From a virus: DNA of 64,000 nucleotides. The stretch covers positions 20,466 through 84,465 of IMG/VR virus record IMGVR_UViG_3300045988_065177, one strand, 5' to 3'. Below are positions 11,323 through 49,252 of this stretch, one piece after another; within the stretch, counting starts at the first letter, position 1; every line of letters begins with the position of its first letter. The translations under genes and the position numbers were made by a program. The notes beneath the pieces were generated by a model. The model was not told where the DNA came from. It searched no databases and was given only the letters and a program-made list of their open reading frames with translations.

Positions 11323-11377
11323 TCAGTTGGGGTGTCGAACACTCTTGGGCATATTATATTTATTCAATGCCTATGCG

Positions 11378-17671: not shown

Positions 17672-18322
17672 ATGCCTTTTAAATCAACTTTAGTAAACTG
17701 CAAATAGTGTGGAAGAGAATTACCCCTCAATAGAACTTATTTTCGTAGAATAGTTACTAACAAAAAGGAACATTATTCAGAAATATGCAAAGAATGTGAA
17801 AAGGAAAATAAGGTAAACTAGGAATGGAAAGATGGCAAACTTAGATGCCATATATGTGGATAGTATAAAGATGAAAATTGCTTTCCTATTAGTGGTCATT
17901 ATATATACAGAAATTATAGAGATAGCAGATGTACAAAATGTAAAGGAATACAAAATAAGAAAGCTAAAGATAGATACTCTGATGAGAAAAGATTACAATA
18001 CGTATTAAATAGTAGACTATTAGCTGCCAAGAATAGAGCTTCCTCAAAAGGTATTGAATTTCAACTCTCCCTTTAGGATTTAACTAAATTATGGGATAAG
18101 CAAGGTGGAAAATGTGCAATTTCAGGAATACCTATGACATATGAATTGAATTAGGGAAGGGTGTTTTCTAATGTGAGTATAGATTAGGTTGTTCCAGGAA
18201 AAGGCTATATTCCTGAAAATATCTAGCTTGTCTGCATGGCTGTTAATTAGATTAAATCTGATTTCGATATGTAGACAGTTTTGTATATATGTAAACAAAT
18301 TATTAATAATTATGATACATAA
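17672..18322 (+). CDS. His-Me finger (HNH_3-like) endonuclease with N-terminal zinc ribbon; about 9 in-frame TAG codons
   Basis: Hand translation from ATG 17672 gives ...CKECEKENKVN(TAG)EWKDGKLRCHICG(TAG)YK...LWDKQGGKCAISGIPMTYELN(TAG)GRVFSNVSID(TAG)VVPGKGYIPENI(TAG)LVCMAVN(TAG)IKSDFDM(TAG).. and ends at TAA near 18320. The pattern G.CAISG...S.D..P..GY...N..LVC...N..K is HNH-like. Confidence 0.45.
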
Positions 18323-20153: not shown

Positions 20154-20170
20154 AACTATTAATTTTGGCG

Positions 20171-20242
20171 TTGCCCTACTAGGATTCGAACCTAGACTAA
20201 ATGATTTAGAGTCATCTGTGCTGACCATTACACCATAGGGCA
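20171..20242 (-). tRNA. Amber suppressor tRNA, anticodon CUA (reads UAG), derived from tRNA-Gln
   Basis: Minus-strand sequence TGCCCTA-TG-GTGT-AATGGTCA-GCAC-A-GATGA-CTCTAAA-TCATT-TAGT-CTAGG-TTCGAAT-CCTAG-TAGGGCA-A folds as a canonical cloverleaf with anticodon loop CTCTAAA (34-36 = CUA). Its D-arm, T-arm and 4-nt variable loop are nearly identical to tRNA-Gln(UUG) at 33541-33612. Confidence 0.75.
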
Positions 20243-20389: not shown

Positions 20390-20796
20390 GCTTTCAGTTG
20401 TTCTATTTTCATAGTTACTACATTAGATAATGCCATTCTGAATTTAGTAATTCCAGCTCTTACTGATTCCAATTTTCCACTTTCCAAACATTCTTGAATT
20501 TTATTCAGTTCGGACTCCCCTAGATATTCGCAGACATCTATAAATAAATCATCATCTAAAGATTCTAAGTATTTCTGGAATTTGCCTACTTCTTCATTAG
20601 CTAGACAGCTTTCCTCTTTCTATCTTTCATAAGATATTAATAAGAATAAAGAATCATCTGTAGATTCCGCTTTAATGGTTAGGCCATTACTTGATAGATA
20701 ATACTACTAGTTCTTATTAATTGCATCGACGAGATTCTTAAACTCGTCCTAATTTAGTAATGTTTCTAAGTCTGTAATCATAATTGTTTCTTTTTT
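20390..20796 (-). CDS. Hypothetical protein, TAG-recoded (about 4 in-frame TAG); boundaries approximate
   Basis: ATG at 20794-20796. Hand translation gives MITDLETLLN(TAG)DEFKNLVDAINKN(TAG)(TAG)YY... and stays open when TAG is read as sense. Confidence 0.25.
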
Positions 20797-21543: not shown

Positions 21544-22620
21544 AAGATTGGGGAGAAATCCCCTTTCTTTTATATACAAATAGTCTTTGTAGTTATGGAC
21601 ACAAGAAAAAAGTTCAGAACGAAAAAGTGTTTGTATAGCTGGGGAGCAATCTATGACCCAAAGACTGGAGAAAAGTTAAATCTCAAAGCGGACAGAGTTT
21701 ATTGTAAAACTTCAGAAGCGTGGATTATGACTTATCAAAAGTCAGAAGAAGACATCCCAAAAGTAATAAGAATTGTCTTTGTAGATTAACATGACTCTCT
21801 CGTGTATAAATAAGTGAGAGTGGCAGAATCTAATTGCGGCACAACGAGATTTAAAATGATGTGCAGCTCTAAGGTATTATGAGTTAAAATAAAATGCCCA
21901 TATGAACTCCATCATTGGAACATTGGTCAACGGAGAAATCAACAACAAAACAAAAAAATCAAAAACCGAGTTAACTTTTGTAGTAGTTTTAGTTTTATGT
22001 CTGGCTGATAGGAAAGACTATCATTTCTAGTAAAATCGTGTATGTTTCGCGTGAAAATATGGAGAGTAAGGAGAATAATTGCCCACTACGTCGGCAGCCA
22101 ATTTTCCTACTTTTTCCAGTTTTCAAAAAATCGCCAGTAGGACGAGTTTTATAACTCATACTACAATGATTATTTACTCTAACATTAGCCTATAAAAAGG
22201 CAACAAAAAGCGGGGTTACGCAGATAGCCCAATATCCGAAAATAACTGCTATTAATGAAAATGAGAGTTCGCAAACTTATCTCATGAGTAAGGAGGATTG
22301 AGCTATAAGATTGGTCACTTATAGCAATATATGAAAGTACTGCTGACATACCAGTAGACCATGCATGTCATATTTTTATATGTTATGCAATTGTATTAGA
22401 AGTTGCCTGGTATAAGCCGCTAGATTAATAAGGCTAGCTGATAAGAGGATACCTCATAAGGGTATATTTCCTACCTCGAACTCAGTCGCAAGAATATGGA
22501 TTAGCTACCTATATTCTTAGTGAACGTTAGTAACGTAGCTATTTGATTTTCAGTATAGGAAACTGAGAATTAAGTAGTTGAATAACTCTCTATCTTATAC
22601 TAGTTGCCAAGATAGAGTTT

Positions 22621-22690
22621 TCCCCATTAGTATAATGCATTGCGCCTTCCTCTAAAGAAGGAGATTCTGGTTCAAACCCGGAGTGGGGAA
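22621..22690 (+). tRNA. tRNA-like element with possible CUA anticodon loop; irregular D-arm (possible second suppressor or pseudo-tRNA)
   Basis: TCCCCAT..GCG-CCTTC-CTCTAAA-GAAGG-AGAT-TCTGG-TTCAAAC-CCGGA-GTGGGGA-A. It has a good acceptor, anticodon and T arms. The anticodon loop is identical to that of the suppressor tRNA, but the D region is 2 nt short and does not pair conventionally. Confidence 0.3.
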
Positions 22691-25058
22691 CTTAGTATTT
22701 GAGGACTACAGCTACTTGTAGGCTCTATTTGCTGTTAAGGACTATAATGGGTACGCCCAGAGACTAATGCAGAGCATCTCTTATACCAAACAGTATGCTC
22801 CTTGATACTGGAGAGATGTCTTATCGAGAGATAAGGCAAAGTATTGTGAGATTATACACTATATAATCGAAAATAGCCATTTGGCTATAGGCACAGGAAA
22901 GTTCTGAGACAATTGTGAGGCACAGCGGTGCCTCTACTCCTAAGATAAGAACAACCTTTACGTGGTTTAGGAGATAAGTAAGCTATTCAAGCTGAAACTA
23001 ATAGTTCTAGTAATAATTAATAAAAATGTTTATCATGGAAATTATCAAGATTAAAGAACAGTCTATCAATGCAGAAGAATCTAAGCTCTATAAGAAAATG
23101 TTAGATTCTCTAGGAGTAATCTACGAGACAGAGAAAATTAAGAAGGAGCAAATAGATGTTCCTATCTACGTTCTATTTGAAGAGCTAGATGTTAGGGCAA
23201 ATAATGCTTTAAGGTCTGTTACTAATGACGTAACCATAACTCTAAGTACTTTCGTTAAACAGTATTCAAAGAGAGATATACTAAGAGTTAGAAATGTAGG
23301 AAAGCATACATTGACTCTAGTAGTAGAAGCTTTTAGAAAATTTGGATACGAATTAAACTGAGAATTGGAAGTCCTTCGCCCTTTGCTGGCTTAGAAGTAA
23401 AACAGCACTTTTAATAATTTAATAGATAGTAATTTATGATTGTAGATACGATGACAGGTAAAGATATTGTCAGGGAATTTAACCGCGATATAGACTCAAT
23501 AGATAAAATTGCAGAAAGAATGGCCGTAAAGAAAAGGCGAATACTGTTGAAAATGAAAAATCAAATGACTTTTCCACACTTTGGAGAAATAACTCAGATG
23601 AAAGTTGGAAATAACAGATATTATTTAGTATGGAAATGTCTAAGTAGAAATAGTTTAAATTATACGGTATTTACTAAATGTGGCAAAAGAATATATGCTT
23701 ATTCTACTGATACTACAGTACTGGAGTTTACACGTCATTTTTTAGATAGGTATAACGAGAGGTTTAAAATTGTAGGACTAGATAATATACTAAGGAATAT
23801 CTGCAAAGATTTTTGCTTAGGAAAAATATTTGATTCTACAGTTGTCACAGATACAGGACTATTTATAATGACTGAAACAGACTACGGATTCAGTGCAGTT
23901 ACATGCATGAACGATTTATCGAGGAAAAACAATTTAGAAAGATTAGAAAAAATAAGAAAAGGTCTTTCTATATTAGACCCTAAAAGTAAAGATGAAGAAA
24001 TAATGCAATTGTATAAATTGGGTTTATATGAAGATCCTCTGATGAGTCTTTGAAAATTAAGACGAAACTACCTAGAAATAGGTAGTCAGGATTAAAAGAA
24101 AAAGAAAATGAGAAAATTCAACAGATTACACTGCGATTCAACTGTTCGCGCAAGATTTACAGATTCATGGGGAAGAGTGATAACTCTCACTGGAACCCAC
24201 GCCTTCGAGTATACCATTCACATAGAAGGCATCAGAACAGTTACAGAAACATTTGTGAATGGAAAATTAGCAAGAAAAGATTTAACGAATTAAAAAGAAA
24301 ACCATGAGAAAAAGATTCAAAGCTGCGAGAATAGCATCTTCAGACAACTACGAATTGTCTAGAAGAATACATTCTCAGTATTTAAAGAGATGGCACAATG
24401 CTAACATCGAGGTAATCACTGAAATTACCACATCATTAGTAATCAAAGAACAAAAATACATAAGAGTATTTGGAGAATTAATTCCGATTTCGGAAGAGGA
24501 ATTGAGAATCCATAACACTCTGATAGTTGAGAACTAATATGGAAGATTTATTAGCAATTGTTAGATGGGGCATTACTTTACCCGTTTGGTTATTAGAACA
24601 TATACTGAAAGGTTTAACTTTCATTGTTCTAGTATTTGGACTTGTCGTTATGGCGATTTTATTCCCGCTATTTCGATCTACTTGGCGTCGTACAGGCGAT
24701 TCTCGTGTATTTAAGTATGCAACAAAGTGGAGAGGAAACTATCCACTAACAAAAAAAGTATTTAGTTTATGGCAATAATGAGAAGAATCACCGAAATAAA
24801 CGGTGAGATAATTATGGTGGAAACTATGATTATTGTAGGCAATATAATCCTTTGTACAATTCATATTAATGGAGAGCTAGTTAAGTATGAAATATTATCT
24901 GTTGGACAGTTATGGGAAGATCGTTAGGTCTTTCCGTAGCTGGTCAGAAGCTAACAAATTCAGAATAGTGATGAATAGATTGGATTGGAGGATTGTACCA
25001 TGACCTATATAGTAGTATTCATAATATTAATTATCATTTGGAAGGCAATTGAAGAACA

Positions 25059-26070: not shown

Positions 26071-26143
26071 GGGGCAGTAGCTTAATGGATAAAGCATCAG
26101 ACTTCTAATCTGACGAGTGCGAGTTCGACTCTCGCCTGCCTCA
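26071..26143 (+). tRNA. tRNA-Arg(UCU)
   Basis: GGGGCAG..TCAGA-CTTCTAA-TCTGA..CGAGT-TCGACTC-TCGCC-TGCCTC-A; anticodon loop CTTCTAA. Confidence 0.7.
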
Positions 26144-26293
26144 CTTAAATATTTAATTTTAATCTTTATGAAATAGTGCTTAAATTGTGGGAAGGAGATT
26201 CCCAACAGAAATAAATATTGCAACAACGTCTGCTAGTTAGAATATCAACATAAACAAAAATATAAGCTAATTTTAGAGGGAGACGAGTCTATC

Positions 26294-26554
26294 ATGAGAG
26301 CCAACTACTCTCCTTCAATATTTAGAGAAGATATTCTTAACGAACAAGATGGTATATGTGCAATATGTGGTTGTAAACCAGAACATAATGGAAAGCCATT
26401 AGTGTTTATAGTTGACCACATAGACGGAAAAGCTTCAAACAATAGAAGAGATAATTTAAGATGCATTTGCCCTAACTGCGATTCTCAGTTGGATACTTAT
26501 AAATCTAAAAATAAAAATAGTGATAGAGTATATTATAGAGAGAATCATAGGTAA
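26294..26554 (+). CDS. HNH endonuclease (small)
   Basis: CAICGC...HNGK..VDHIDGKASNN..DNL..ICPNCDSQ, an HNH beta-beta-alpha-metal motif with flanking Cys pairs. Located between tRNA-Arg and tRNA-Lys. Confidence 0.55.
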   Translation: MRANYSPSIFREDILNEQDGICAICGCKPEHNGKPLVFIVDHIDGKASNNRRDNLRCICPNCDSQLDTYKSKNKNSDRVYYRENHR

Positions 26555-26655
26555 GGTCAATTCCATACAAACAGGTTATTAGCTCGAGAAATAACCTTCT
26601 GTAAACAGTCAGACGTTGGGAGCTTATAGCCCTACGATAGTGAGGCTAAATTAAT

Positions 26656-26729
26656 GACTCCGTAGCTCAGTTGGTTAGAGCACCAAACTTTTAATTTGGG
26701 GGTCCTGGGTTCGAATCCCAGCGGAGTCA
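26656..26729 (+). tRNA. tRNA-Lys(UUU)
   Basis: GACTCCG-TA-GCTC-AGTTGGTTA-GAGC-A-CCAAA-CTTTTAA-TTTGG-GGGTC-CTGGG-TTCGAAT-CCCAG-CGGAGTC-A. Confidence 0.75.
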
Positions 26730-26797
26730 CAGGCAATTTTCTTGAATTTTTCTTTTTCTTACGCAGTGAGTATTTGTTGTGAAACACATACTTACAC

Positions 26798-26870
26798 CTG
26801 GATATAGTTCAGTAGGTAGAACGCTGCATTTGGGATGCAGAGGTCGTGTGTTCGAGCCACACTATCCAGA
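26798..26870 (+). tRNA. tRNA-Pro(UGG)
   Basis: CTGGATA-TA-GTTC-AGTAGGTA-GAAC-G-CTGCA-TTTGGGA-TGCAG-AGGTC-GTGTG-TTCGAGC-CACAC-TATCCAG-A. Confidence 0.75.
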
Positions 26871-27079
26871 CGAAGTAATCACCATTCACTAGTAGAATAG
26901 ATGATGTCTATTGGGTGCCTACGTAGATGAATCCCTGATTACTCCAATTAACAGAGGTGAGTTCCCTTAAAATTGTTACCACGCACTAGTGCGGCTATTA
27001 GCTACTAGAGGACTTGGGGTGCCAAGAGGAAGAATTGTAGTAGCTATGTTAATTAGAACAAATCTGTTAATTGCTTTAT

Positions 27080-27162
27080 GGGAGTGCGCCAACGTTGGAG
27101 AGTTGGGCTTGACTGTAAATCAAGTGCCTATGGCTTAGAAGGTTCGAATCCTTCCACTCCCA
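27080..27162 (+). tRNA. tRNA-Tyr(GUA), type II with long variable arm
   Basis: GGGAGTG-CG-CCAA-(10-nt loop)-TTGG-G-CTTGA-CTGTAAA-TCAAG-(15-nt variable arm)-GAAGG-TTCGAAT-CCTTC-CACTCCC-A. Confidence 0.65.
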
Positions 27163-27784
27163 CAAATTTAATGAATATGTTAATAGGATTTTTAGTATTT
27201 ATTATTCTAGAAATAGCTATAATAGCTACTATAGGGTTTACTTATTTTCACGAAGATGATAAGAATTTCAAGAATTATCGCAAAGGAAAGAATAGCTGAT
27301 TTGTTAGACTTAAATTTCGTGTCTAAGATAGAATTAAGACAGGGAAAACAAGGATTTAATAATCCTGCTATTTGTAGAGTAGAAATCTATTTACTACTTG
27401 AAAACGACAAAGAGTACTTTAATTCCAAAATGACTGATATTATGTCATGGGCACAAAAGAACAAATGTAACATTGCTTTTACTACTGCTAGTATGGCTCT
27501 CAAAGACGGATTTATTAAAGAATCTGCTTTTGATGATTTTAACTACCCAGTTCCTAAAAAGTATAAAGCATTATGTGATATTTATTCAGCAAGTTACTTT
27601 AATCTATTTAATAGAAGAAAGCTATAATGGAAGACAAGTACGAAGGATTATCTGATGAAGAACTTAAAGAGATTTTCGAAGATATGGAAGCAGACTATTG
27701 GATAGACTACTATCAGTCTCTTTGCGAATGAAACGCAGCAGTTGGCTTTCGGAATCTCTGTCTTAACAAAATGAGTCCGTAATT

Positions 27785-27868
27785 GGGATTGTAACCGGTA
27801 ATTGGTAGCCGCGCAGACTGTAAATCTGCTCTCTTTTGAGACTGGAGGTTCGAGTCCTCCCAATCCCA
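27785..27868 (+). tRNA. Second tRNA with GUA anticodon (Tyr-like), long variable arm, irregular D-arm
   Basis: GGGATTG..GCAGA-CTGTAAA-TCTGC-(14-nt variable)-GGAGG-TTCGAGT-CCTCC-CAATCCC-A. The acceptor, anticodon and T arms are perfect. The D region does not fold canonically in my hands. Confidence 0.45.
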
Positions 27869-28824
27869 CACATTTTAATTAATTAGATTATGACAAAAGA
27901 AGAAGCAATTAGAGCTATGTCTGAAGGAAAGAAAGTAAGGCATAGATACTTTAGTAAAGACGAATGGGTAACTATAAATTCCAGCGGACTATATGAGTTC
28001 GAGGATGGTATAAAAGTTGACTCATCGTTATTCTGGATGGACAGACAGGATTCCTATTGGAATGATGGATGGAGCTTAGTTTAACTTTAAATAAGAATAA
28101 AAATGACAACGTATGAATACGGAGAAGGATACTTACCAGAAATCTGGTACTAGTGTAGTATTTCAAAAAGAAATTAAGCAGTGTAGAGAATGTCCGCACT
28201 GCTTAATTGTTCCTGACCCAGATCCTAATGACTGGTTCAATGATGACGACGAGAAAGCGCTCTGTAAGGAGTCTGAGAATAAACTAATTGAAGGAATGTT
28301 AAGACCTTACGAAAGGGTATTAATTCCAGATTGGTGTCCATTAAAAACTAATAAATAAAATGAATAAAATGAATAAAACAAAAGCTTGCCTTGAAATAAC
28401 TTTAGAACAGGCACGTAAATGGTATGAGGGTGGCAATGAAGACTTGAAAAAATTAGCTCTTACCGCTTTTAGCGAAGAAGTTCTAGTCCCTTCTCTTGGA
28501 GAAATATTAGAATCTGAAAAGGATTGGGATGTGCTATTTTTACCTTTAGGGATATCAGAGCAAACTAAGTCTCTAATTTGTCTACAAATAGTAGCTAATT
28601 ACTTAAACAATGGTTGGAATAAAACAGAGAGTAACAGCGGTTATTTCCTTGGAAGGGGTTCTTCTCTATCTGGAAAGACGGAAACTGATATAAAAGGAGT
28701 GTACGTCGTTATGCATCAAAACGTAAAATATCCAGGTGTTGTTTATTTTAGAACTGTAGCTGATGTACAGAAAGCGGTGAAGATACTAGGAAAGAAGTTG
28801 CTGCCGCTATTCGAATAATTTGAT

Positions 28825-28898
28825 GGTGTTATTAGTTCAGTTGGCAGAACGCTACATTGTGGCTGTAGAGGTCAGCGGTTCGAGTCCGCTATAACACC
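28825..28898 (+). tRNA. tRNA-His(GUG) with encoded G-1
   Basis: G(-1)-GTGTTAT-TA-GTTC-AGTTGGCA-GAAC-G-CTACA-TTGTGGC-TGTAG-AGGTC-AGCGG-TTCGAGT-CCGCT-ATAACAC-C. The extra 5' G pairs with C73, which is the His identity element. Confidence 0.75.
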
Positions 28899-28928
28899 CT
28901 AATCATGTTTTATTAAATATTATAACGA

Positions 28929-29489
28929 ATGAAAAAGACAATTGAAATTGAATGTCCAGATGGTTATAAACCCATCTATAATGCCGAAACTGGCAATGTT
29001 GAAATCGTTCCAGAAAACATTATGGGACGGATAAGAACCTATGAGGATGCTGTAAACTATCTAGGGTGTGTTACTAGAGATACTATTTACTACAATAGAT
29101 CTGTAAATTCTCTAGCTAAGTTGCAGACAGTCTTGGATGCGCTAAATGAAGGCCACAAGTTCAATCTGTTAACTGGTACTATATGGTATCCCTGGGTTCG
29201 CTTCTTTAGAATGAAATCAGTTCCGAAGGATGCAGAAGTCATTGGTCACTTCCGTTATCAGGGCGAGAAATTCGCGTTGGTGGGCGGCCACGCGTATGAT
29301 GGCGGCGATGCGGGTCTCGGCTCTTTCTATTCTAACAATGGCGTCGGCGTTGCCGATTCCGCTGTCGGGATGCTTGCGTGCAAATCTGAAGAGATTGCCA
29401 AATACGTATCAACCCAGTTTGGAAAGCTAGTGTTCGATGCTTGTTTTGCAAGACATTTCAAGGGTGAAGAATTTGAATGGCTTGACTAA
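28929..29489 (+). CDS. Second DGR target protein (contains VR2); small CLec-like C-terminal domain
   Basis: ...GEKFALVGGHAYDGGDAGLGSFYSNNGVGVADSAVGML.. is homologous to the tail-fibre VR1 region (LVGGRAHYGGTAGLGYFYSGTDVGNATSLVGFR). A GC-rich island at 29270-29370 lies inside an otherwise AT-rich gene. Confidence 0.6.
   Translation: MKKTIEIECPDGYKPIYNAETGNVEIVPENIMGRIRTYEDAVNYLGCVTRDTIYYNRSVNSLAKLQTVLDALNEGHKFNLLTGTIWYPWVRFFRMKSVPKDAEVIGHFRYQGEKFALVGGHAYDGGDAGLGSFYSNNGVGVADSAVGMLACKSEEIAKYVSTQFGKLVFDACFARHFKGEEFEWLD
29279..29370 (+). repeat. DGR variable repeat VR2 (remote target, opposite strand, 29 kb from the TR)
   Basis: Plus-strand sequence aligns with the reverse complement of the TR (251-348). 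I found 13 differences, all at TR adenines (for example gcaAtgcAggtctcAgctAtttcA.. versus gcgAtgcGggtctcGgctCtttcT..). Confidence 0.65.
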
Positions 29490-29968
29490 TGAAAAAGTTC
29501 CTTGTAATTATGCTTGCTATGCTCTGGATGAGCGTAGCAGCTTTTTCTCAAATAACTATATCACAAGAAGACTATGATAAGTTGCCTGGTGAAACTAGAA
29601 CTCAAATCGAGAAGATAACAACAGAGAAAGCTATAAAGGGTGAAATCAAGGAAGTTTCTGAGTATGCAAATCTTGGTAAGGAAATTGGCGTAGCAGTCAA
29701 TGAAACCTTAAAAGCAGTTGAAGATTCAGCCATAAGAATAGCAGAATCCGACCTAGGACAAACAGCAATAACTATCGTAGTGTGGAAACTCCTCTATAAG
29801 GAGATAGCCGGAATTGTAGTAGGCACCATACTATTAGGAATATCAGTATTTATGCTATTAACTGGTAGAGGTAGACTATCTAAAAACGATGAAGATGCTG
29901 GAGGTTGGATAAGTGTGGTAGGAGGAGCTGTATTCTTTATATCTTCAATGATTTGTATATTTGGCTGA
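29489..29968 (+). CDS. Membrane protein (signal peptide plus 2 C-terminal TM helices), immediately downstream of the VR2 gene
   Basis: MKKFLVIMLAMLWMSVAAFSQ... and hydrophobic C-terminal segments. Confidence 0.45.
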   Translation: MKKFLVIMLAMLWMSVAAFSQITISQEDYDKLPGETRTQIEKITTEKAIKGEIKEVSEYANLGKEIGVAVNETLKAVEDSAIRIAESDLGQTAITIVVWKLLYKEIAGIVVGTILLGISVFMLLTGRGRLSKNDEDAGGWISVVGGAVFFISSMICIFG

Positions 29969-30063
29969 GGAGCAGTCCAGGCTATAGGCTGGTGTATTCT
30001 AGCTATATTCTGTGTAATATTGCTTCTTGGTATGATTTTTGGCTAGTCATAAGACTAGCTTTT

Positions 30064-30152
30064 GGAAGGGTGGCAGAGTCAGGTTTATTGCAACGGTCCT
30101 GAAAACCGTCGGGCGGTAACACGTCCCCAGGGTTCGAATCCCTGTCCTTCCG
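30064..30152 (+). tRNA. tRNA-Ser(UGA), type II
   Basis: GGAAGGG-TG-GCAG-..-ACGGT-CCTGAAA-ACCGT-(long variable arm)-CAGGG-TTCGAAT-CCCTG-TCCTTCC-G; G73 discriminator. Confidence 0.65.
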
Positions 30153-30157
30153 CAAAT

Positions 30158-30231
30158 ACGTCCGTACTCAAGTGGTTTAAGAGGATAGTCTCCAAAACTA
30201 TTATTCCTAGGTTCGAATCCTAGCGGGCGTG
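30158..30231 (+). tRNA. tRNA-Trp(CCA)
   Basis: ACGTCCG-TA-CTC..GAG-G-ATAGT-CTCCAAA-ACTAT-TATTC-CTAGG-TTCGAAT-CCTAG-CGGGCGT-G. Confidence 0.65.
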
Positions 30232-30254
30232 CTCATTTATTAATAAATTAGATT

Positions 30255-30485
30255 ATGAAAAAGTTAACAATTATTTCATTAGGACTTGTGCTACTATTTA
30301 GTTGTTCGGGTTCAACTAGTGAACTAGAAGCTACTAGGAATACCAGAGATGGAATTATTCCATTTGGTGCCGCAGTTCACTTTAAATACAAGAATCATCA
30401 GTACATTAAATTCACCGAGGGAAATGGGAACTACAAGGTTGTAGGAGTAGTTCATGACCCAGATTGTAAATATTGTAAGAGATGA
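30255..30485 (+). CDS. Small lipoprotein (Bacteroidetes-type signal, Cys after LLFS)
   Basis: MKKLTIISLGLVLLFSCSGS... Confidence 0.4.
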   Translation: MKKLTIISLGLVLLFSCSGSTSELEATRNTRDGIIPFGAAVHFKYKNHQYIKFTEGNGNYKVVGVVHDPDCKYCKR

Positions 30486-31000
30486 GCGAAGTGTATTATC
30501 TTTTGGCAGCCATTTCATATGGCATTTTTCTAGTTCAATTCATTTTATCTTGGTTCGGTGGAGACACCGACTTAGATGTTGATTTAGATGGAGAACTAGA
30601 TATGAACGTGAGTGATATTGTCTCATTTAAGGGATTAATCCATTTTATAATGGGAGCTAGTGGATGGCTTTGTGTTAAGCAATCTGTATCTCATTCTGTA
30701 GAATGGTATGATTATCTAATCGCATTAGTATGCGGTATTCTTTTCGTGGTTATACTTTACTACTTATATAAACTCTGTTTAAAACTCCAGCATCAAGTTA
30801 TTCCAGAAGAGGGTGAAGCCTTGATTGGAAGGGTTGGAATTATCACAGTTCCTTGTGAAAACCATTTCTTCATTACTATTGAAGTAAATGGAGGTTCTGA
30901 GGAAATTGTTGCCTATCCAGAAGTTCCAAAAATGGGATATATGGTTGGTACTCGTGTGGTAATTTCTAAATTTGAGAATGGAAAGTATTATTTTAACTAA
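30482..31000 (+). CDS. NfeD-like membrane protein (short form), partner of the SPFH/flotillin protein
   Basis: N-terminal TM helices followed by a C-terminal beta-barrel-like segment GRVGIITVPCENHFFITIEVNGGSEEIVAYPE...GTRVVISKFENG. Translationally coupled to the downstream flotillin gene. Confidence 0.5.
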   Translation: MSEVYYLLAAISYGIFLVQFILSWFGGDTDLDVDLDGELDMNVSDIVSFKGLIHFIMGASGWLCVKQSVSHSVEWYDYLIALVCGILFVVILYYLYKLCLKLQHQVIPEEGEALIGRVGIITVPCENHFFITIEVNGGSEEIVAYPEVPKMGYMVGTRVVISKFENGKYYFN

Positions 31001-31016
31001 AAAGAATTTTTAAAAG

Positions 31017-39893: not shown

Positions 39894-39966
39894 TCCCCTG
39901 TAGTTTAGTTGGTCAGAACACTAGATTTGTAATCTTGTGACCTCGGTTCGAATCCGAGTGGGGGAT
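39894..39966 (+). tRNA. tRNA-Thr(UGU)
   Basis: TCCCCTG-TA-GTTT-AGTTGGTCA-GAAC-A-CTAGA-TTTGTAA-TCTTG-TGAC-CTCGG-TTCGAAT-CCGAG-TGGGGGA-T. Confidence 0.55.
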
Positions 39967-40705
39967 CTATTATTAATTAGATTAATTATATGACTAGATT
40001 AGAAAAGTATTTATTAGCAACAGCTTCCGAGATTATCGAAGCTGAAACCACTGTTTCTCGTTATTTTGTTATAGGTAATGTAAAAATACGAGTATCAGAC
40101 CATTGGAGTAAAAATAGTGATGCGGATTTGCACGTTCTTGTTCCTTATAATGGAGGAACTAAGTATATAGTAACTACTAAAGACAGTCCTGGAAAATTTC
40201 TAATTTGGAACGCTAACCAAATCAAGGATTTTATTCCATCATTGCAAATAATGAAAGGACTTAAAGAGTCTGTTACTTCTGCACCAAAACCGAAAGATTC
40301 TGCTGTACAAAAGATTCAACTGGCTTTAAATAATACAAATCCAGATGCAAATTCCTTAGAATTTGATGGAAATATTATTGAATCCAGATTGAAGGAGAAA
40401 AATCTTACTGCAAAGCAGAGAGAAGTATTAAGAAGAGCTAAATCAACTTGGGATATTTCTCAGATTGGAACATTACCTAGCATGGTAAAAGTAGACCTAG
40501 GGTTAAGTAATGGTTCTATAAATGAGGATGTCCAGATTTTCTTAACTTGTACTTCATTGACTTACAATGAGTTTTTGAACATTTACAAGATAATTGTTGT
40601 AGATAATCATAAGACTCCAACTATTAAATTACTGCAAGAGGCTTATAGTCTGATTGCGTAATCAGGATACAAGATTTTCATACGGGTTCGAATCCCGTTA
40701 CTATG

Positions 40706-42791: not shown

Positions 42792-44807
42792 ATGGAATTT
42801 AAGAATTTTAAGAAAGATGTAGAAGCTGCTTTCAACAATATGATTGCAGAAAACCTGTTTGTTGCTAATGTTGATAAAGACCTCCTTTGGATGGGCTATC
42901 TTCTGTCGTTTGAAGATGAAACTATTAGACAAGACCATAACTGCAATGCCTGTAAATCTTTTATCCGGCATTATGGTAAAGTTGTAGCGATTGACCCTCA
43001 AACGTATAAGATTAAAACATTCTGGGACGATGTGCATACTCCTGGATATGAGAAAACAGCACAGGCTCTAGCTAAATTAGTTAAGGAAGCTGGAATAGGA
43101 GACGTCTTTATTCAAGATGTGAACGAATTTCATGGTTGTGACCATAATGTTCAACTACTTCCTGATGGAACAACTAGAACTTGGACGCATCTATATGTGA
43201 CTATTCCGAATAACTTCAAATTCAACAAACGAGTTCATGGTTTTGACTCTGCTGCTGGTTACAGAGGAGATGTCAGAGCAAGAGCTGGAGTATTTGAACG
43301 CTCCATCAATGAGCTTAAGCTAGAGGCAGTTGAAACTGTTATTGAGCTTATAGAAGGAAATAATCTCTATAGAGGTGCAGAGTTCTTGAAGAGTTTGGAG
43401 GAATTTAGAAGAACATTGGTTGCCGCCCAAACTCTGAGTCCAGAAGTAAGAACTAACTATTGCTGGTTAAACTTTAAGTCTCCTATAGCTAAGATTAGAA
43501 ACATGGCTATGGGAACTTTACTTATTGATCTAAGTAATGGTGTAGATTTGGAGAGAGCCGTAAGGGCATATGAAAACATCATGGCTCCTGCTAACTATAA
43601 GAGACCTACTGCTCTTATTACTAAGAAGCAAATTGAAGCTGCTCAGAAGAAAGTAGAAGAGCTGGGTCTTACTGATGCACTTCCTCGTCGTCACGCTCAC
43701 GTAGAAGATATTTCTGTGAATGATGTTCTATTCGTAAATAGAGATACTAGAGCAAAGATGAAGGGAGGAATGTTTGATATGCTCTCCGAAACTTCTACAG
43801 TAAATCCAAAAGAGTTTACCAAAGCCCAAGAGGTTTCTGCTGATGCCTTTGTCAAGAATGTACTTCCAGGAGCTAAGGAGGTTTCTATCTTGGTAGAGAA
43901 CAGACACATTCCCAACTTTGTTACTCTGACTGCTCCTGAAAATCCGGATGCTGGACAGTTGTTCAAGTGGAATAACAACTTTGCTTGGGTTTATAATGGT
44001 TCTGTAGCTGATTCTTTCAAGGAGAAAGTAAAGGCTGCTGGTGGAAATGTAGACGGCTTCATGAGATGCTCTCTTCACTGGTTTAATTATGATGACCTTG
44101 ACCTTCATGTAACCGAGCCTGGAGGAAGAGAAATCTATTATGGAAGCAAGACTGGTTATACTGGAGGAACTCTTGATGTTGACATGAACGCAGGTTCTGG
44201 AAAAACTAGAGATGCTGTTGAGAACATCATATGGACAGACCCTAGCAGACTAAGACCAGGGGATTATGTGGTAAGAGTGCATAACTTCAATAAGAGAGAA
44301 AGTATTGATTTTGGTTTCGAAATGGAAATCGAGATTAATGGAGAACTTCATAAGTTCAACTATGATAAGATGGTGTCAGACAGAGAATATATTGCGGTAG
44401 CAATTATCAAGGTAGATTCTATTGGTAATATAACCCTAAGTCCGGTAATTGCCGAAGGTGCAACTTCATACAAGTCTATGAACGAGTGGGGCATTGATAC
44501 TATGCGTTTCCAAACTGTTTCTTGCATCATGTATTCTCCAAATTATTGGGAAGGTAATGAAATAGGAAACAAGCACCTATTCTTCATGATTGATGGATGT
44601 AAAAATCCTGACCCAGTTCGAGGATTCTTCAATGAATATCTGAGACCCGATCTCGAAAAAGATCATAAGAGAGTATTCGAAGCTATTGGCTCTAGAGCTA
44701 AAGCAGAATACAACGATAACCAGTTGAGTGGACTGGGATTCTCTAGTACGTCTCACGACGAGGTTGTAGTTAAAGTTGATAATAAACCATTTAAAATTAA
44801 ATTCTAA
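42792..44807 (+). CDS. Large conserved hypothetical protein (671 aa); function not recognised
   Basis: Intact ORF with a higher-GC codon usage than its neighbours. It has an N-terminal CNACKSF Cys pair and a Gly-rich central region (YYGSKTGYTGGTLDVDMNAGSGKT). I cannot assign a family. Confidence 0.45.
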   Translation: MEFKNFKKDVEAAFNNMIAENLFVANVDKDLLWMGYLLSFEDETIRQDHNCNACKSFIRHYGKVVAIDPQTYKIKTFWDDVHTPGYEKTAQALAKLVKEAGIGDVFIQDVNEFHGCDHNVQLLPDGTTRTWTHLYVTIPNNFKFNKRVHGFDSAAGYRGDVRARAGVFERSINELKLEAVETVIELIEGNNLYRGAEFLKSLEEFRRTLVAAQTLSPEVRTNYCWLNFKSPIAKIRNMAMGTLLIDLSNGVDLERAVRAYENIMAPANYKRPTALITKKQIEAAQKKVEELGLTDALPRRHAHVEDISVNDVLFVNRDTRAKMKGGMFDMLSETSTVNPKEFTKAQEVSADAFVKNVLPGAKEVSILVENRHIPNFVTLTAPENPDAGQLFKWNNNFAWVYNGSVADSFKEKVKAAGGNVDGFMRCSLHWFNYDDLDLHVTEPGGREIYYGSKTGYTGGTLDVDMNAGSGKTRDAVENIIWTDPSRLRPGDYVVRVHNFNKRESIDFGFEMEIEINGELHKFNYDKMVSDREYIAVAIIKVDSIGNITLSPVIAEGATSYKSMNEWGIDTMRFQTVSCIMYSPNYWEGNEIGNKHLFFMIDGCKNPDPVRGFFNEYLRPDLEKDHKRVFEAIGSRAKAEYNDNQLSGLGFSSTSHDEVVVKVDNKPFKIKF

Positions 44808-45585
44808 TTATGTACAAACAAGCGTCTAAAATGAAGTTGCGCTTTGCAACTAGTAAAGGTAATTTGAGTGTGGAAGATTTGTGGGACTTAAGTCTGCCTG
44901 CATTGGACAGACTGGCAGTGTCCTATGACGAAGAATTAGCCAAGAGTCCTAGAAAATCTTTCATAACTAATGATACTCCTAGCAATAGCGAACTGGAGTT
45001 AAAGTTCAATATTGTGAAAGATGTTATCACTGATAAGCTGAAAGACAAGGCCGCTAGAGAAGCAGCTAAAGATAAGGCAGCTGAGAAGGCACGCCTGACT
45101 GAACTGCTGGCTAAGAAACAGTCTGAGAAAATGGAAAGTATGTCCGAAGATGAAATCAGACAACGACTTGCAGAACTCGGATAATTGTGTCGTATTGAAA
45201 ACAGTTAGTCCACAAATCTTAGATAAACTAAGGGAAAGTGGATTGACTGTTTGTACGTGTTGTGAATTTCCTGGTACAGCCTGGTTAGTATTCAGACCAA
45301 ATATGCCTACATCGGATATTCACGGTGAGGGGTATGATTTCGAAGAGATAGGACTTTTTGGAACAGAGGCTGTTCTCAAATACTTCGAAGCTAACACTCC
45401 GAATTATGTAGATTGCGGAACTGATGTCGATAAATTTATTAACATTTGTTTGCAGTTTAAATAAGTTAACGGTTTTTAACTTTGAATTTAACACTTGTAC
45501 TGTTATTATAGTAAGTTGATTAGCGGTACGTGAGTATAGCTAATTACTATGCCCGAATGGTGGAATTGGTAGACACGTCAGATTT

Positions 45586-46402
45586 AGAAAAAGAAATGTT
45601 CTTTCTTATTAATCTATTTTAACAGAATTTTATAGGAAGTCACAAATTTTTATTATATCTATGTGTATATAAAAATATACATAATGAGTAAAAGAAAATG
45701 GACTGATGAACAACTGATTGAGGCTGTTAAAACTAGTTTATCTTATGCAGAAGTAATGAGAAAATTAGGACTTAAAGCAGCTGGCAGTAACTATGATACT
45801 GTTAAGAACAAGATTAAAGAATATAATTTAGATACCTCACATATGACTGGTAAAGTTTGGAATCAAGGAGAACGATACAAGCCAGTTAAAACTTCCAGAC
45901 CTTTAGAAGAAGTTTTAGTAGAAAACTCTACATGGGTAAATACTAATAATTTACGTAAAAGACTTCTTAAGGAAGGTATCAAGGAATATAAATGTGAGTG
46001 TTGTGGCAGGACTGAGTGGTTAGGAAAACCTATAGCTCTAGAACTGCATCATGTAAATGGTATAAAAGATGATTTAAGGATAGAAAATTTACAACTTCTG
46101 TGTCCTAATTGTCATGCCTTTACTGATAATTATAGAGGAAAGAACAAGGGTATGAATGCCCAAGAGGAAACTCTTGGAGTAGAAGCAGGCTAATTCGGTG
46201 AAGGTATCAGCCCTATAAATGGTAATAACGCCGAGCTAAGTTAAAAAGAATAAGATAACAAGAACCTCTGTTAAGCTAGAACGTAGCTTCATACGGATGA
46301 ACTTACTTCTTTTTATAAATGTGTAGAGACTATACACCTGCAACCTAAGTCAGAATTGATATGGTTAAGACATAGTCCAAGCAATCTTTTATAGATTGTA
46401 TG
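45586..46402 (+). mobile_element. Group I intron (about 817 nt) carrying an HNH homing endonuclease ORF
   Basis: Lies between the two halves of tRNA-Leu(UAA). The 5' exon ends in U and the intron ends in G. It contains ORF 45663..46193. Confidence 0.55.
45663..46193 (+). CDS. HNH homing endonuclease (intron-encoded)
   Basis: ...ECCGRTEWLGKPIALELHHVNGIKDDLRIENLQLLCPNCHAF..., an HNH motif with Cys pairs. The N-terminal domain WTDEQLIEAVKTSLSYAEVMRKLGL is typical of intron HEG DNA-binding modules. Confidence 0.65.
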   Translation: MYIKIYIMSKRKWTDEQLIEAVKTSLSYAEVMRKLGLKAAGSNYDTVKNKIKEYNLDTSHMTGKVWNQGERYKPVKTSRPLEEVLVENSTWVNTNNLRKRLLKEGIKEYKCECCGRTEWLGKPIALELHHVNGIKDDLRIENLQLLCPNCHAFTDNYRGKNKGMNAQEETLGVEAG

Positions 46403-46644
46403 AAGCTCTGATGCCCAGTAATGGGCGTGTGGGTTCGAGTCCCACTTCGGGTACTAATTTAATATCAATAATATGGAAAGATATATAGAAGAACTTATTG
46501 AAATATATAGAAAAAATACTCTAAAGTCAGATGAAGAATTAGAATCTCTGAAGAGTTTACTTAGAAATGTTCATCGTGATGGATTTATAGCAGGAGAAGA
46601 ATCAATAATTAATGTTGTGGATAAACTAACAAAACGTAACTAAT

Positions 46645-47556
46645 ATGAACAGTGTATTTTTTGGAAATGAAGGGTTGACTTCTACGTCAGCAAACTTCTA
46701 TGCGAACATCGCACAAGAAATGATTCAAGCAGCACAGGAACGCTTGAATAATGTGAAATTCTTTCAAGTATCTGTAGCCTCTATCGGTGGAGGAGAAAAG
46801 CAGTTAATGACAGTAGGACAAAAGTCCCTTGACTTTATAAAAGATGATTTGGAAAAGGTCGCTGCCATGAATAGTTTTTGTGCTTGGGTACGAGAAGCTA
46901 TTAAAGAGAAAGAAGGAATGATTGGCAAAGTATCTGCTACTATGCTTGATGATTGGGCAGAAAGTCAGGGAATAGGACTGCCAGAGCAGCCTAAGTATCC
47001 AGAAGCTCTACCTTCTCCGACTGAAGAGACTATCATAAAGTCGTGGGATATTAACAAGAGAAATAAATTCCTAAGATTAGAGGCGTTTGCTTCTACCTAT
47101 GGAAAGTATATTCATCCAAAAGGAGCCTTTAGTAAAGCACGAAAAGAAGTTCATGCAGCTGAGAATTGTCCTATCTATAAGGAAGGCTCTGGAAGAGATT
47201 TAATTCTCTACTACCAAGACCCTACCATCGAAGTAGAAAAAGTGGACAATATGTTCATGTCTCTTCAAGACACCTATCGTTCTTACGAGAAGGAGTTAAA
47301 TGCTCTTAAAGCTGAGCTTAAGGAGGAGGTTAATAAACTTTCTAACACTCAAGAACAAGAGTATCGTGAGAAAATGGCTGAATTTAAAGCAAAATACGAC
47401 AAATATACCTCCGAATTAGGAGAGTTGAGAAGTCGTTTCAATAGTTGGAAAACTTCTGAAATGGAACGTATTTCCAAACTAAAAATCGCTTTGCCTAAGA
47501 ATCTTTTAGATATTTTCGAAGAGATTAGGAGACAAGGCGACTCTTCCTCTAAGTAA
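46645..47556 (+). CDS. Hypothetical protein (303 aa), coiled-coil C-terminus
   Basis: Intact ORF ending in TAA. Confidence 0.4.
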   Translation: MNSVFFGNEGLTSTSANFYANIAQEMIQAAQERLNNVKFFQVSVASIGGGEKQLMTVGQKSLDFIKDDLEKVAAMNSFCAWVREAIKEKEGMIGKVSATMLDDWAESQGIGLPEQPKYPEALPSPTEETIIKSWDINKRNKFLRLEAFASTYGKYIHPKGAFSKARKEVHAAENCPIYKEGSGRDLILYYQDPTIEVEKVDNMFMSLQDTYRSYEKELNALKAELKEEVNKLSNTQEQEYREKMAEFKAKYDKYTSELGELRSRFNSWKTSEMERISKLKIALPKNLLDIFEEIRRQGDSSSK

Positions 47557-47949
47557 TTAGAGGACTTCCGTAGGAAGCTAACATAACATACTTAACAGGA
47601 ATAATTATGAACAGTATATTCTTAAATCCGCATGGATTTAATCTTTATTCGCTGGCTACACAAAAATTTACAACCTACTCTCTAATTGAGAGTCTTTGTC
47701 TTAGTCTTTGTTAGTGTAGCTAGGTCTTTGACTACGGCTTCATCTTTGCCTGCGCGTTAGCTTCCTACATAGCTCGTCAACCACGTGTTGAAGGAGTTAC
47801 GGAATCCCTTCGGGATTCTAGCCTTTTGCTTCAGTTACAAGTAATCTTTAAACTTGGTGACTATTATCCCAAATTCTCAACAAGATGAAGAGGGAGGTTG
47901 ACCAACCTAATAATGGTACAAGCTCTTCGGAGTGATAGGAGTGGGGAAA

Positions 47950-47990
47950 GTATCTGGTGAAGCACAGATACTGGAACCACTCTTTTTTTT
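47950..47990 (+). terminator. Putative terminator at the end of a candidate ncRNA region
   Basis: GTATCTG-gtgaagca-CAGATAC hairpin, then GGAACCACTC and T8. Confidence 0.3.
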
Positions 47991-48030
47991 GATAGATAAA
48001 ATGATTATTAACTAATTTAAATTAAGAAAA

Positions 48031-48204
48031 ATGAAGAAAGTACTATTGCTTTTCGGAATGGTTGCACTGATGTCTGCTTGTGCAGGTAATACAAAGACTC
48101 AGGCTCCAGAAAACGATTCTATCGCAATCGTTAAAGAAGTTGCTGACACAATGAGTGTAGACACTCTAGGTGTGGATAGTCTTGTAATTGATAGTATTCA
48201 GTAA
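48031..48204 (+). CDS. Small lipoprotein (57 aa)
   Basis: MKKVLLLFGMVALMSACAGNTKTQAPEND...; a Bacteroidetes-type lipobox. Not in the ORF track because it is under 60 aa. Confidence 0.35.
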   Translation: MKKVLLLFGMVALMSACAGNTKTQAPENDSIAIVKEVADTMSVDTLGVDSLVIDSIQ

Positions 48205-49252
48205 TATGGATTTTATCGCAACCAGAGTCAATGAACTCTTAAGTAGGGTATCTCCTATTAAGCGATGGCTTATTTCTGATGTTGCGAATGAATATTATCG
48301 AGCAGGATATCAAGATGGTCAGAAACTAGTCTACAGAAATGTGTTAAAGGGAAGCGCATTGAGAGAGTTTATCGAAATTCTAAATCATTGCGGAATTAAA
48401 CTTAGTTACAACTTACGTAAGGGTGGGCTACTGGTCAGTGTAAGAACTGATAAGTTGTCCAACTTACAGAATCTTGTTAATTGTTACAAAAATGAGCAAA
48501 ACAAAGAGAACAGTCCTGACAAGGGATGATTGTCCCCCATTGGAGGAACAATACAAAAGCATTATGGAGAACTTTGATTTTGATAAGGTTCTGGAGTATA
48601 TGCAGTGGAACAAGAGTCATAGAGAATATGATGACGAGGGTCGCTGTATAGGCAAAAGTACATGGAAAATGTACGTAGGTCCGAACGAACACAGAGTTCC
48701 TACTCTTTACGAACTATCCAGAAATGCTAGTATACTACTAAGAGAAGTAATGAAGCTGTACAATGACAACAAAAGTCCTTATCTTTCTATAGCTACTGGA
48801 CCATTCAAGGTTATTTGCAGATATGGGATGCTGGAACTTATAGCTTGCCTAGAAACTTGGAGTTATGATTGAATTTAATCAGATTTTTTGTGAGGATTTG
48901 AAAGATGATTTCGAGGAAGCTGGTAGGCATGAGAGAAATTTCGAGCTAGATGAGTTCATTCAGAAGGATTTGAGTAGAGCTTTTGCTTTTGGTTATTGTC
49001 ACTTAGATTGGATAAAAGAAAAAATGTGGTTTCCAGCCTCTATTAGAAAAGCCTTGAGGCATCTTGGGGATAATTTGGAAGACTTCATTCCACAAATTAA
49101 GTGGCTTAATGAGAAGTATGGAGCTGTAGGAAAGAGAGTTAGAATAAGTGATTATGCAAACTATATTTTAGATAATATATTTTGTGATAATCAAGACGAC
49201 CTGCTAAAGATAGCAATACTACTAGGAACTAATCTCAGGACCAATACTCAGA

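Follow-up and report, generated by a model that had tools for sequence, protein, structure and literature searches.

The stretch of DNA analysed here, called the window below, comprises 64,000 nt of virus record IMGVR_UViG_3300045988_065177 (IMG/VR; positions 20,466 to 84,465). It is phage-like, with a G+C content of 35% and PHROG matches that include helicases, an exonuclease and a nicotinamide phosphoribosyl transferase. The subject of this study is a tRNA-Leu(UAA) gene that lies in two halves on its + strand, separated by 817 nt that hold a predicted group I ribozyme and a putative HNH homing-endonuclease gene. The split gene consists of the following parts, compared below with the nearest GenBank phage record, MT836666.1.

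45551 to 45585, + strand: 5' exon, tRNA-Leu(UAA) nt 1 to 34 in standard numbering, GCCCGAATGGTGGAATTGGTAGACACGTCAGATTT, with U34 at its end; read from the sequence and identical to the first 35 nt of the MT836666 tRNA
45586 to 46402, + strand: group I intron, 817 nt; missing at exactly the same point in MT836666, with an Rfam Intron_gpI match and covariation
46402, + strand: omega G, the last intron nt; a G stands directly before A35 in 18/18 distinct viral split tRNA-Leu introns
46403 to 46453, + strand: 3' exon, from A35 to the discriminator A, with no encoded CCA, AAGCTCTGATGCCCAGTAATGGGCGTGTGGGTTCGAGTCCCACTTCGGGTA, i.e., AAGCTCTGA...CACTTCGGGTA; read from the sequence and matched in MT836666

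Joined, the halves form a type II tRNA with a fully paired acceptor stem (7/7), a long variable arm, and an anticodon stem TCAGA/TCTGA that closes the loop UUU^AAGC, with the anticodon UAA broken between U34 and A35 (the break is marked by a caret here and below). MT836666.1, which comes from human faeces and is ~86% identical across the neighbourhood, encodes the same 86-nt tRNA unsplit (...CAGATTT^AAGCTCTGA..., junction GATTT^AAGCTC); its exons and flanks are 100% identical to those of the window, and the unsplit gene is recognised by ARAGORN as tRNA-Leu(taa) and scores 56.9 bits with the Rfam tRNA model. The 817 nt are therefore a precise insertion, and the predicted spliced product exists as a gene of a sister phage. 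A first-pass annotation, made from the letters alone, had placed two tRNA-Leu halves 817 nt apart, had joined them to a type II tRNA-Leu(UAA), and had set the break at nt 34/35, with a U ending the 5' exon and a G ending the intron. The coordinates read off the sequence agree with this, and the uninterrupted tRNA of MT836666 both confirms the product and fixes the junction.

The same annotation had described the gene as an intron-bearing tRNA within a phage tRNA array; the tRNA stands, but the gene lies among protein genes, 5.6 kb downstream of the main array (26071-39967). It had also called UUA and UUG codons abundant, and 46% of the leucine codons in the long + strand open reading frames (ORFs) are indeed one of these two. 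The only other tRNA-Leu in the window has the anticodon UAG, and no second tRNA-Leu(UAA) was found in its 64 kb. The split gene was missed by default ARAGORN, which called 25 tRNAs in the window, and by an Rfam scan at the gathering threshold, while ARAGORN in intron mode detected it but forced the canonical 37/38 site and miscalled the anticodon as 'tag'. With default tRNA finders and the curated Rfam threshold, the window's only tRNA-Leu(UAA) is thus invisible to routine annotation, and the same blind spot affects many viral contigs and Bacteroidales genomes.

Viral contigs were searched for relatives with two queries, the HNH protein and a core motif, and the sequences obtained were then run through ARAGORN in intron mode (loci are cited by L numbers). 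This gave 18 distinct viral split tRNA-Leu genes, which all share the insertion site of the window's type II tRNA-Leu(UAA): the break is always at 34^35 and the intron always ends in G, with intron sizes of 670 to 845 nt where an ORF is present and 198 to 237 nt where it is not. The acceptor (7/7) and anticodon (5/5) stems of these 18 genes stay complementary between the halves despite their differing sequences, which argues that the joined tRNA is under selection.

The group I core and the P1 helix

The core occupies the 3' part of the insert, and its helices are as follows.

46160 to 46177, + strand: P2, hairpin CCAAGAG-GAAA-CUCUUGG with a GAAA tetraloop; double changes in 7/7 pairs, in agreement with the minimum free energy (MFE) fold
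46185 to 46189, + strand: P3, 5' strand GCAGG, with its partner at 46337-46341; 5/5 pairs covary, 100% paired
46195 to 46234, + strand: P4 (46195-46200/46229-46234; 98.9% paired) and P5 (46205-46209/46220-46224; double changes in 4/5)
46235 to 46322, + strand: P6 (GC 46235-46236/GU 46321-46322) and P6a (46242-46248/46309-46315; 7/7 covary), with a lineage-specific internal extension of ~60 nt
46328 to 46333, + strand: P7, 5' strand GACUAU inside the conserved GUGUAGAGACUAUA, with its partner at 46372-46377, the expected guanosine-binding helix; invariant in the family, 97.8% paired, fits the Rfam consensus
46337 to 46341, + strand: P3, 3' strand CCUGC, forming a pseudoknot with P7; covariation
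46342 to 46366, + strand: P8 with CCUAAG/UAUGG, the 11-nt GAAA-tetraloop receptor motif; outer pairs covary, receptor letters invariant
46372 to 46377, + strand: P7, 3' strand AUAGUC inside the conserved AAGACAUAGUCC; Rfam consensus and covariation
46382 to 46398, + strand: P9, hairpin CAAUCU-UUUAU-AGAUUG; 5/5 counted pairs covary

A local Rfam scan of 1.2 kb gave a full-model match to Intron_gpI (RF00028) at 46144-46398 (41.8 bits, E 5.5e-9), and an unconstrained MFE fold of 46156-46402 returned P2, P3, P4, P5, P6a, P8, and P9. For covariation, 15 intron cores were aligned structure-blind with MAFFT, and a structure of P2, P3, P4, P5, P6, P6a, P7 (pseudoknotted), P8, and P9 was tested on the alignment. 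Over the 49 pairs in these 15 introns, 95.5% of the cells were paired, with double changes in 32/49 pairs; none of 500 shuffles matched this, and sliding the 3' partner by 1 to 3 columns left only 33 to 43% paired. The group I core proposed in the first-pass annotation is therefore borne out by the local Rfam match, the MFE fold, and the covariation alike. It comprises helices P2 to P9 with the P3/P7 pseudoknot, and the intron has a terminal guanosine (G46402) at the 3' splice site. As judged from its sequence and that of its relatives, the insert is a group I intron.

The core carries no extra helices (no P5abc, no P7.1/7.2). L2 is GAAA, and L9 is UUUAU, which is not a tetraloop. The P6 extension is missing from L067, L065, and L055, and in L032 one C-G pair of P7 has changed to G.U.

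Further upstream, the 5' exon and the region just before P2 would form P1, which encloses most of the insert.

45582 to 45585, + strand: P1, 5' strand, exon A31-U32-U33-U34, whose U45585 takes part in the U.G wobble of the 5' splice site; partner strand GAAU, 46154-46157
46154 to 46157, + strand: internal guide sequence GAAU, the P1 3' strand; compensatory with exon position 32
45586 to 46153, + strand: L1, the P1 loop of 568 nt that houses the endonuclease gene; the guide position is conserved in 15 aligned introns

A G-purine-purine-pyrimidine tetramer stands just before P2, 36 nt upstream of J3/4, in 15/15 introns, ORF-less ones included. The guide is GAGU (or GAGC) where the exon reads ACUU, and it is GAAU (window) or GGAU (L002) in the sole lineage with the exon AUUU. 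P1 would consist of the splice-site wobble U45585.G46154 and three further pairs, a helix with modest support. With the guide 568 nt downstream of the 5' splice site, the HNH gene lies inside the P1 loop; L1 measures 22 and 41 nt in the ORF-less introns of L065 and L067, respectively, and 479 to 568 nt in ORF-bearing relatives. A broader census of P1 in viral and bacterial loci was uninformative, as the exon is nearly always ACUU and the fixed offset slips in other lineages. A proximal candidate guide, GAAUUU at 45625-45630, which could make six pairs with the exon, was rejected because it is unconserved in relatives and altered in the close relative L017.

We also considered whether the halves could be joined by a protein-dependent or trans pathway, i.e., by an archaeal-type endonuclease and ligase or as a split tRNA assembled from two transcripts. 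The canonical-position model that ARAGORN can force in intron mode would fit such a pathway, but this model needs the wrong anticodon and a mismatched stem, and the junction given by MT836666 is 34/35, not 37/38. No bulge-helix-bulge motif is evident, and a complete group I core with its terminal G is present. The archaeal/eukaryotic tRNA splicing endonuclease is not known from bacteria, and we consider joining by such a route barely credible.

The HNH gene and its arrangements at tRNA-Leu

Two features belong to the gene in the P1 loop.

45684 to 46193, + strand: putative HNH homing-endonuclease gene, 169 amino acids (aa), with ATG at 45684 and the stop codon UAA at 46191-46193 in J3/4; PF01844, PHROG 10822, and homologues
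45660 to 45683, + strand: hairpin UAUGUGUAUAU-AAAA-AUAUACAUA, abutting the start codon of the ORF; read from the sequence

The protein scored 27.5 bits against PF01844 (cut-off 21.4), with a weak helix-turn-helix signal at its N-terminus, and matched PHROG 10822, 'HNH endonuclease', with E 6e-51. Its C-terminal part follows the pattern CxxC...HH...N...CxxCH, seen in the translation as CECC...HH...N...CPNCH behind the helix-turn-helix-like N-terminus, so that the residues of the beta-beta-alpha-metal motif accompany the above-cut-off domain match. A sequence search gave no significant PDB relative. The first-pass annotation had placed a 176-aa HNH ORF in the intron; the family assignment holds, but not the length, since the homologues (more than 1800 in metagenomes, with a typical length of 169 aa) support the start at ATG 45684, while the 176-aa form begins at GTG 45663. 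An element like the hairpin at 45660-45683, TGTGTA...TATACA, precedes the ORF in L003, L006, and L022, and the hairpin could possibly control the start of translation.

The final ~13 codons of the gene overlap the guide and P2 as well as the 5' half of P3. Free-standing HNH relatives stop ~13 aa sooner, after ...YRGKN, and the tail therefore looks like read-through into ribozyme sequence that was already there.

A substantial HNH match was seen at 38 viral loci (L002-L039). At 33 of them the gene lies within a tRNA-Leu or right beside one: 13 copies are in a ribozyme-bearing split tRNA-Leu, 14 have an intact tRNA-Leu(UAA) a few bases downstream, 4 closely follow an ORF-less split tRNA-Leu, and 2 closely follow an intact tRNA-Leu(UAA). 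No tRNA was near the HNH gene in the seven weakest matches (L040-L046). This family-wide association points to tRNA-Leu(UAA) DNA as the target of the enzyme. Sister lineages (L029, L032-L038) have a related HNH gene in L6 and not in L1, which argues for separate invasions.

Other copies are free-standing beside an intact tRNA-Leu(UAA), or stand just downstream of a tRNA-Leu with an ORF-less intron (L019, L021, L033, L039; L023-L026; L081, L100). These arrangements look like stages toward a mobile intron.

A different layout was seen in L003-L007, L011-L016, and L022 (~2390-3120 in each), where a member of the HNH family breaks a tRNA-Leu at the anticodon region and the ribozyme is absent. Behind the HNH gene stands a complete substitute tRNA-Leu(UAA), and behind this what is left of the 3' part of the old tRNA. 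Instead of an intron, these loci have a ribozyme-free endonuclease cassette that brings along an extra copy of the gene which it disrupts.

The tRNA of the window could likewise be a dead, disrupted pseudogene, with an endonuclease cassette in its anticodon loop and flanking ribozyme-like sequence that does not splice. The ribozyme-free loci, in which the same HNH family interrupts tRNA-Leu and leaves the old halves as remnants, give this idea a precedent, and the Rfam score of the window intron is indeed under threshold. However, every one of the ribozyme-less insertions comes with a complete substitute tRNA-Leu(UAA), whereas the window is without one; moreover, all conserved elements of the core are intact, its helices are kept by compensatory changes, and the exon halves covary across the family. 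We regard a pseudogene as very improbable.

Probable mobility and range of the element

Evidence for movement came from L002, a locus on a 270-kb viral contig, whose intron is identical to that of the window at 808/817 positions (98.9%), while the exons agree at only 68/86 (79%). Next to the insertion point the exons of the two loci do agree, over 7 to 8 nt on each side, among them the unusual U32 and G37-C38. A near-identical intron in diverged exons argues for recent mobility, and the pattern is the footprint that recent homing with co-conversion would be expected to leave. The presence of the intron in the window and its absence from MT836666 are a further indirect sign of homing. In addition, the window is 98 to 100% identical to MT836666 from 44802 to 49001, a tract that is centred on the tRNA-Leu locus, against ~80% outside, which is consistent with recent exchange driven by endonucleases.

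MT836666.1 carries an insert of its own 3' of the intact tRNA-Leu (L001:3239-3964). It measures ~725 nt, contains a GIY-YIG endonuclease (PF01541, E 1e-11) with a helix-turn-helix, and has on its flanks a 12-nt repeat, CCACTTCGGGTA, of the 3' end of the tRNA; the insert itself gave no match to group I introns. Two different endonuclease elements thus occupy one tRNA locus in near-identical backgrounds, the intron in the window and the GIY-YIG insert in MT836666.

In L017 (96% identity; 2348-2816), the HNH gene breaks off near codon 115 and is joined directly to the gene that lies 3' of the tRNA, and the ribozyme core and the 3' exon are gone. This may be a true deletion or a fault of the assembly.

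Splicing may, on the other hand, have outlived mobility: the HNH gene would then be decaying, inactive, or retargeted, and the intron inherited only vertically. Cycles of invasion, decay, and loss are known for homing-endonuclease genes, and such stages can be seen among the relatives, in the ORF-less introns of L065 and L067, the latter with an apparent 3' remnant of the ORF ('AGAGGAAAGGATAGGTATGAGTGC'), and in the truncated ORF of L017. In the window, by contrast, the ORF is intact and has the family-standard 169 aa, both CxxC pairs and the HH...N...H residues are present, the Pfam match is above its cut-off, and the 98.9%-identical intron in 79%-identical exons speaks for transfer in the recent past. 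Loss of mobility therefore appears unlikely, if less so than a dead gene.

Very probably, then, as far as can be told from its sequence, the element is a group I intron that is mobile and interrupts the tRNA-Leu(UAA) gene of a phage. The precursor tRNA would fold as a ribozyme in which exon nt A31-U34 (45582-45585) pair with GAAU at 46154-46157, including the U.G wobble, and so close the 568-nt P1 loop, while P2 to P9 (46160-46398) with the P3/P7 pseudoknot would form the catalytic core. Free guanosine would attack after U45585; G46402 would then occupy the same site in P7, and the exons would be joined. The expected product is the 86-nt tRNA that MT836666 encodes unsplit, to which the host would add CCA. 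The 169-aa HNH protein made from the P1 loop would most likely cut the intron-less tRNA-Leu(UAA) of co-infecting phages, and repair of the break would copy the intron into the cut gene (homing).

Several observations weigh against a spliced and mobile intron. The Intron_gpI match expected by the first-pass annotation was obtained in the local scan, but at 41.8 bits it stayed below the curated gathering threshold for RF00028 (50 bits), and there was no match at the gathering threshold or in an E-value scan of the whole window. The ORF-less relative L067, at 50.4 bits, is just over the threshold, and we attribute the lower score of the window to the bits lost with the ~60-nt P6 extension and a misaligned P1. 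L9 is not a GNRA loop, so that the intron lacks one of the tertiary contacts that are typical of Azoarcus-like introns. P1 has only four pairs, its covariation comes from one lineage, and inspection of the guide region and the 3' exon found no convincing complementarity that could make up a P10. A P1 loop of 568 nt and translation that runs through P1 to P3 could hinder folding. The high-identity tract shared with MT836666 is not unique, as another mosaic block lies at 43700-44299. Finally, the close relative L017 appears to carry a gene-destroying deletion, which implies that the tRNA is dispensable at least sometimes.

The element belongs to a large group. The P7 string GTGTAGAGACTATAYACC matched more than 119 viral stretches, and among the matches listed 91 lie in split tRNAs, with at least 84 distinct sequences; 62 of these 84 are tRNA-Leu(UAA), 5 are Leu(UAG), and 4 are apparently Leu(CAA). 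Introns of at least 400 nt were found at 58 of the 82 parsable junctions among the listed matches. With at least 84 distinct intron-split tRNAs in viral contigs, most of them tRNA-Leu, phage tRNA introns look common. In L047 c[11033-11731], L048 c[2858-3556], L061, and L063, a second split type II tRNA stands beside a split tRNA-Leu(UAG); its loop is CUU^CAAA, its anticodon UCA, which is opal-suppressor-like, and its intron of 605 to 629 nt ends in GTAAG.

The same string GTGTAGAGACTATAYACC occurs in more than 120 bacterial contigs, and 113 of the matches listed are in split tRNAs. These are tRNA-Asn, Asp, and Thr in Patescibacteria and Gammaproteobacteria, and tRNA-Leu(UAA), with or without the HNH gene, in Bacteroidales and Paludibacteraceae. 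Compared to the window, the Bacteroidales/Paludibacteraceae loci have HNH proteins that are 67 to 73% identical and core segments that are 81 to 91% identical (DNA). The ORFs flanking one of them, L190, were read by eye from their translations as lpxD, lpxC/fabZ, lpxA, and glnS, which marks it as a genuine segment of a bacterial chromosome. Default ARAGORN found no tRNA in the 8-kb stretches of L190, L172, L183, L084, L148, and L077 (Bacteroidales/Paludibacteraceae), each of which has an intron-split tRNA-Leu(UAA), and in standard annotation those genomes probably seem to be without tRNA-Leu(UAA).

One HNH family thus occurs at one tRNA gene in several forms: free-standing, beside an ORF-less intron, in L1, in L6, and in a ribozyme-free form with a replacement tRNA. 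With this variety, the pathway by which mobile introns have been proposed to arise can be put directly to the test. More speculatively, the intron and its HNH gene may shuttle between phages and Bacteroidales hosts, with the tRNA-Leu locus as a battleground of competing endonucleases; we hold this to be rather doubtful. If it were so, the phage HNH enzyme would also cut the intron-less chromosomal tRNA-Leu(UAA) of the host, which would explain the same intron/HNH pair in Bacteroidales chromosomes, and it would cut the alleles of rival phages as well. The GIY-YIG cassette at the tRNA 3' end in MT836666 and the ribozyme-free HNH cassettes with a replacement tRNA would then be the countering rivals, and the configurations would be a living series in which free-standing endonucleases and ORF-less introns merge into mobile introns.

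Some other features of the surroundings were noted. A scan for sigma-70 promoters and terminators gave 10 sites, no more than chance would account for (6.1 +/- 2.7 expected). Immediately 5' of the tRNA, at 45516-45547, lies a hairpin GATTAGC-GGTACGTGAGTATA-GCTAATT, whose loop is conserved and whose stem covaries in L003 and L006 (GTAGC/GCTAC, ACAGT/GCTGT); in Rfam it gave only a weak match to Bacteroides-1 (E 2.4). A RAGATH-14 RNA at 22398-22591 (+ strand; 183 bits, threshold 149) stands directly upstream of an amber-suppressor-type tRNA(CUA) at 22621-22691, and a further tRNA(CUA) lies at 20170-20242 (- strand). The related contig L011 carries RAGATH-14, RAGATH-7, RAGATH-6, and two hatchet ribozymes near its tRNAs, along with a weak match to a type III hammerhead (42.4 bits, under the threshold of 48.5).

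There are also hints that TAG is read as sense. A frame of 217 codons with nine in-frame TAGs lies at 17672-18322 (+ strand), among others, and the GIY-YIG gene of MT836666 (L001:3325-3960) matches Pfam end to end only when three in-frame TAGs are translated. Reading TAG as sense raised the coding density of the window only slightly, which suggests that any recoding is confined to some genes.

Comparison with known introns

An intron at position 34/35 of tRNA-Leu(UAA) has been known since 1990. The kinship with the cyanobacterial and plastid tRNA-Leu intron that the first-pass annotation had proposed is upheld by viral relatives such as L023, which has the canonical form 'AAAATTGAGCC...GTAAG^AAAATC' and aligns to the same core as the window; L023 and L026 both read 'AAAAUUGAGCC...GUAAG^AAAAUC' as RNA, like the classical intron, and can both be aligned to the window core. 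The window intron shares with the classical one the gene, the U34^A35 site, the U.G at the 5' splice site, and the terminal G, as well as a very short P1 of four pairs followed by a P2 with a GAAA-type loop. The strings AAUUCGG.GAA, CCGAGC.AAG, GUAGAGACUA, and AUAGUCC in the core are common to both. It differs in its endonuclease gene in a 568-nt P1 loop, its extended P6, its UAUG end in place of GUAAG, and its phage genome.

The Azoarcus tRNA-Ile(CAU) intron (IC3, with a solved structure) has the same compact plan of P1-P2-P3-P4-P5-P6-P7-P8-P9 without P5abc or P7.1/7.2, and the same GAAA loop on P2 and 11-nt receptor CCUAAG/UAUGG in P8. By analogy with that intron, L2 may contact P8 in the window as well. 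Features diagnostic of subgroup IC3, the subgroup that the first-pass annotation had expected, include this L2-P8 contact, an L9-P5 contact, and the lack of P5abc and P7.1/7.2. The Azoarcus intron sits in another tRNA, at another insertion position, and has no ORF, and the window's L9, unlike its counterpart, is not a tetraloop.

Self-splicing has been proven for the Anabaena tRNA-Leu intron, according to work cited in PMC13011429, whereas for the window it is deduced from sequence. The classical intron reportedly relies on the anticodon stem and not on P10 (Zaug et al. 1993, as cited in PMC13011429). A 2026 survey of bacterial genomes in mSystems, with viruses outside its scope, reported endonuclease genes in 12/333 tRNA introns, including HNH genes in tRNA-Leu(UAA) of Bacteroidota (PMC13011429). 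These Bacteroidota introns, which may be among the loci found here, match the window intron in tRNA, site, and endonuclease family; they are chromosomal bacterial genes, whereas the window is phage DNA by its PHROG matches. The P7 string of the window also occurs in tRNA introns of Patescibacteria, whose position-35/36 introns have been classed as IA (PMC13011429). The Synechocystis tRNA-fMet intron (I-Ssp6803I) is likewise a mobile group I intron in the anticodon loop of a bacterial tRNA whose enzyme targets the tRNA gene, as cited in PMC3984707 and PMC13011429, but it has a PD-(D/E)XK enzyme, is inserted at position 33/34, and resides in a cyanobacterial chromosome.

Among phages, the introns of T4 td, nrdB, and sunY and those of SPO1 and its relatives (HNH enzyme I-HmuI) resemble the window intron in being phage-borne and in having homing endonucleases; they self-splice and spread in mixed infections, but they lie in protein-coding genes. 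The GIY-YIG endonuclease SegB, whose gene stands free among the clustered tRNA genes of T4 (PMC2330249), resembles the GIY-YIG cassette 3' of tRNA-Leu in MT836666 and the free-standing HNH copies by tRNA-Leu in L019, L021, and L033; unlike the window element, it is not intron-encoded. According to a 2014 review, every phage intron known by then lay in a protein gene, although phages have many tRNA genes (PMC3984707). No report of a group I intron in a phage tRNA was found in the literature searched, whose coverage is incomplete, so that absence is not proof; in that literature, phage tRNA introns appear to be undescribed. The mechanism is an ordinary one, and the phenomenon is widespread and not unique to the window; what is new is the phage tRNA gene as host context and the placement of the endonuclease gene in L1.

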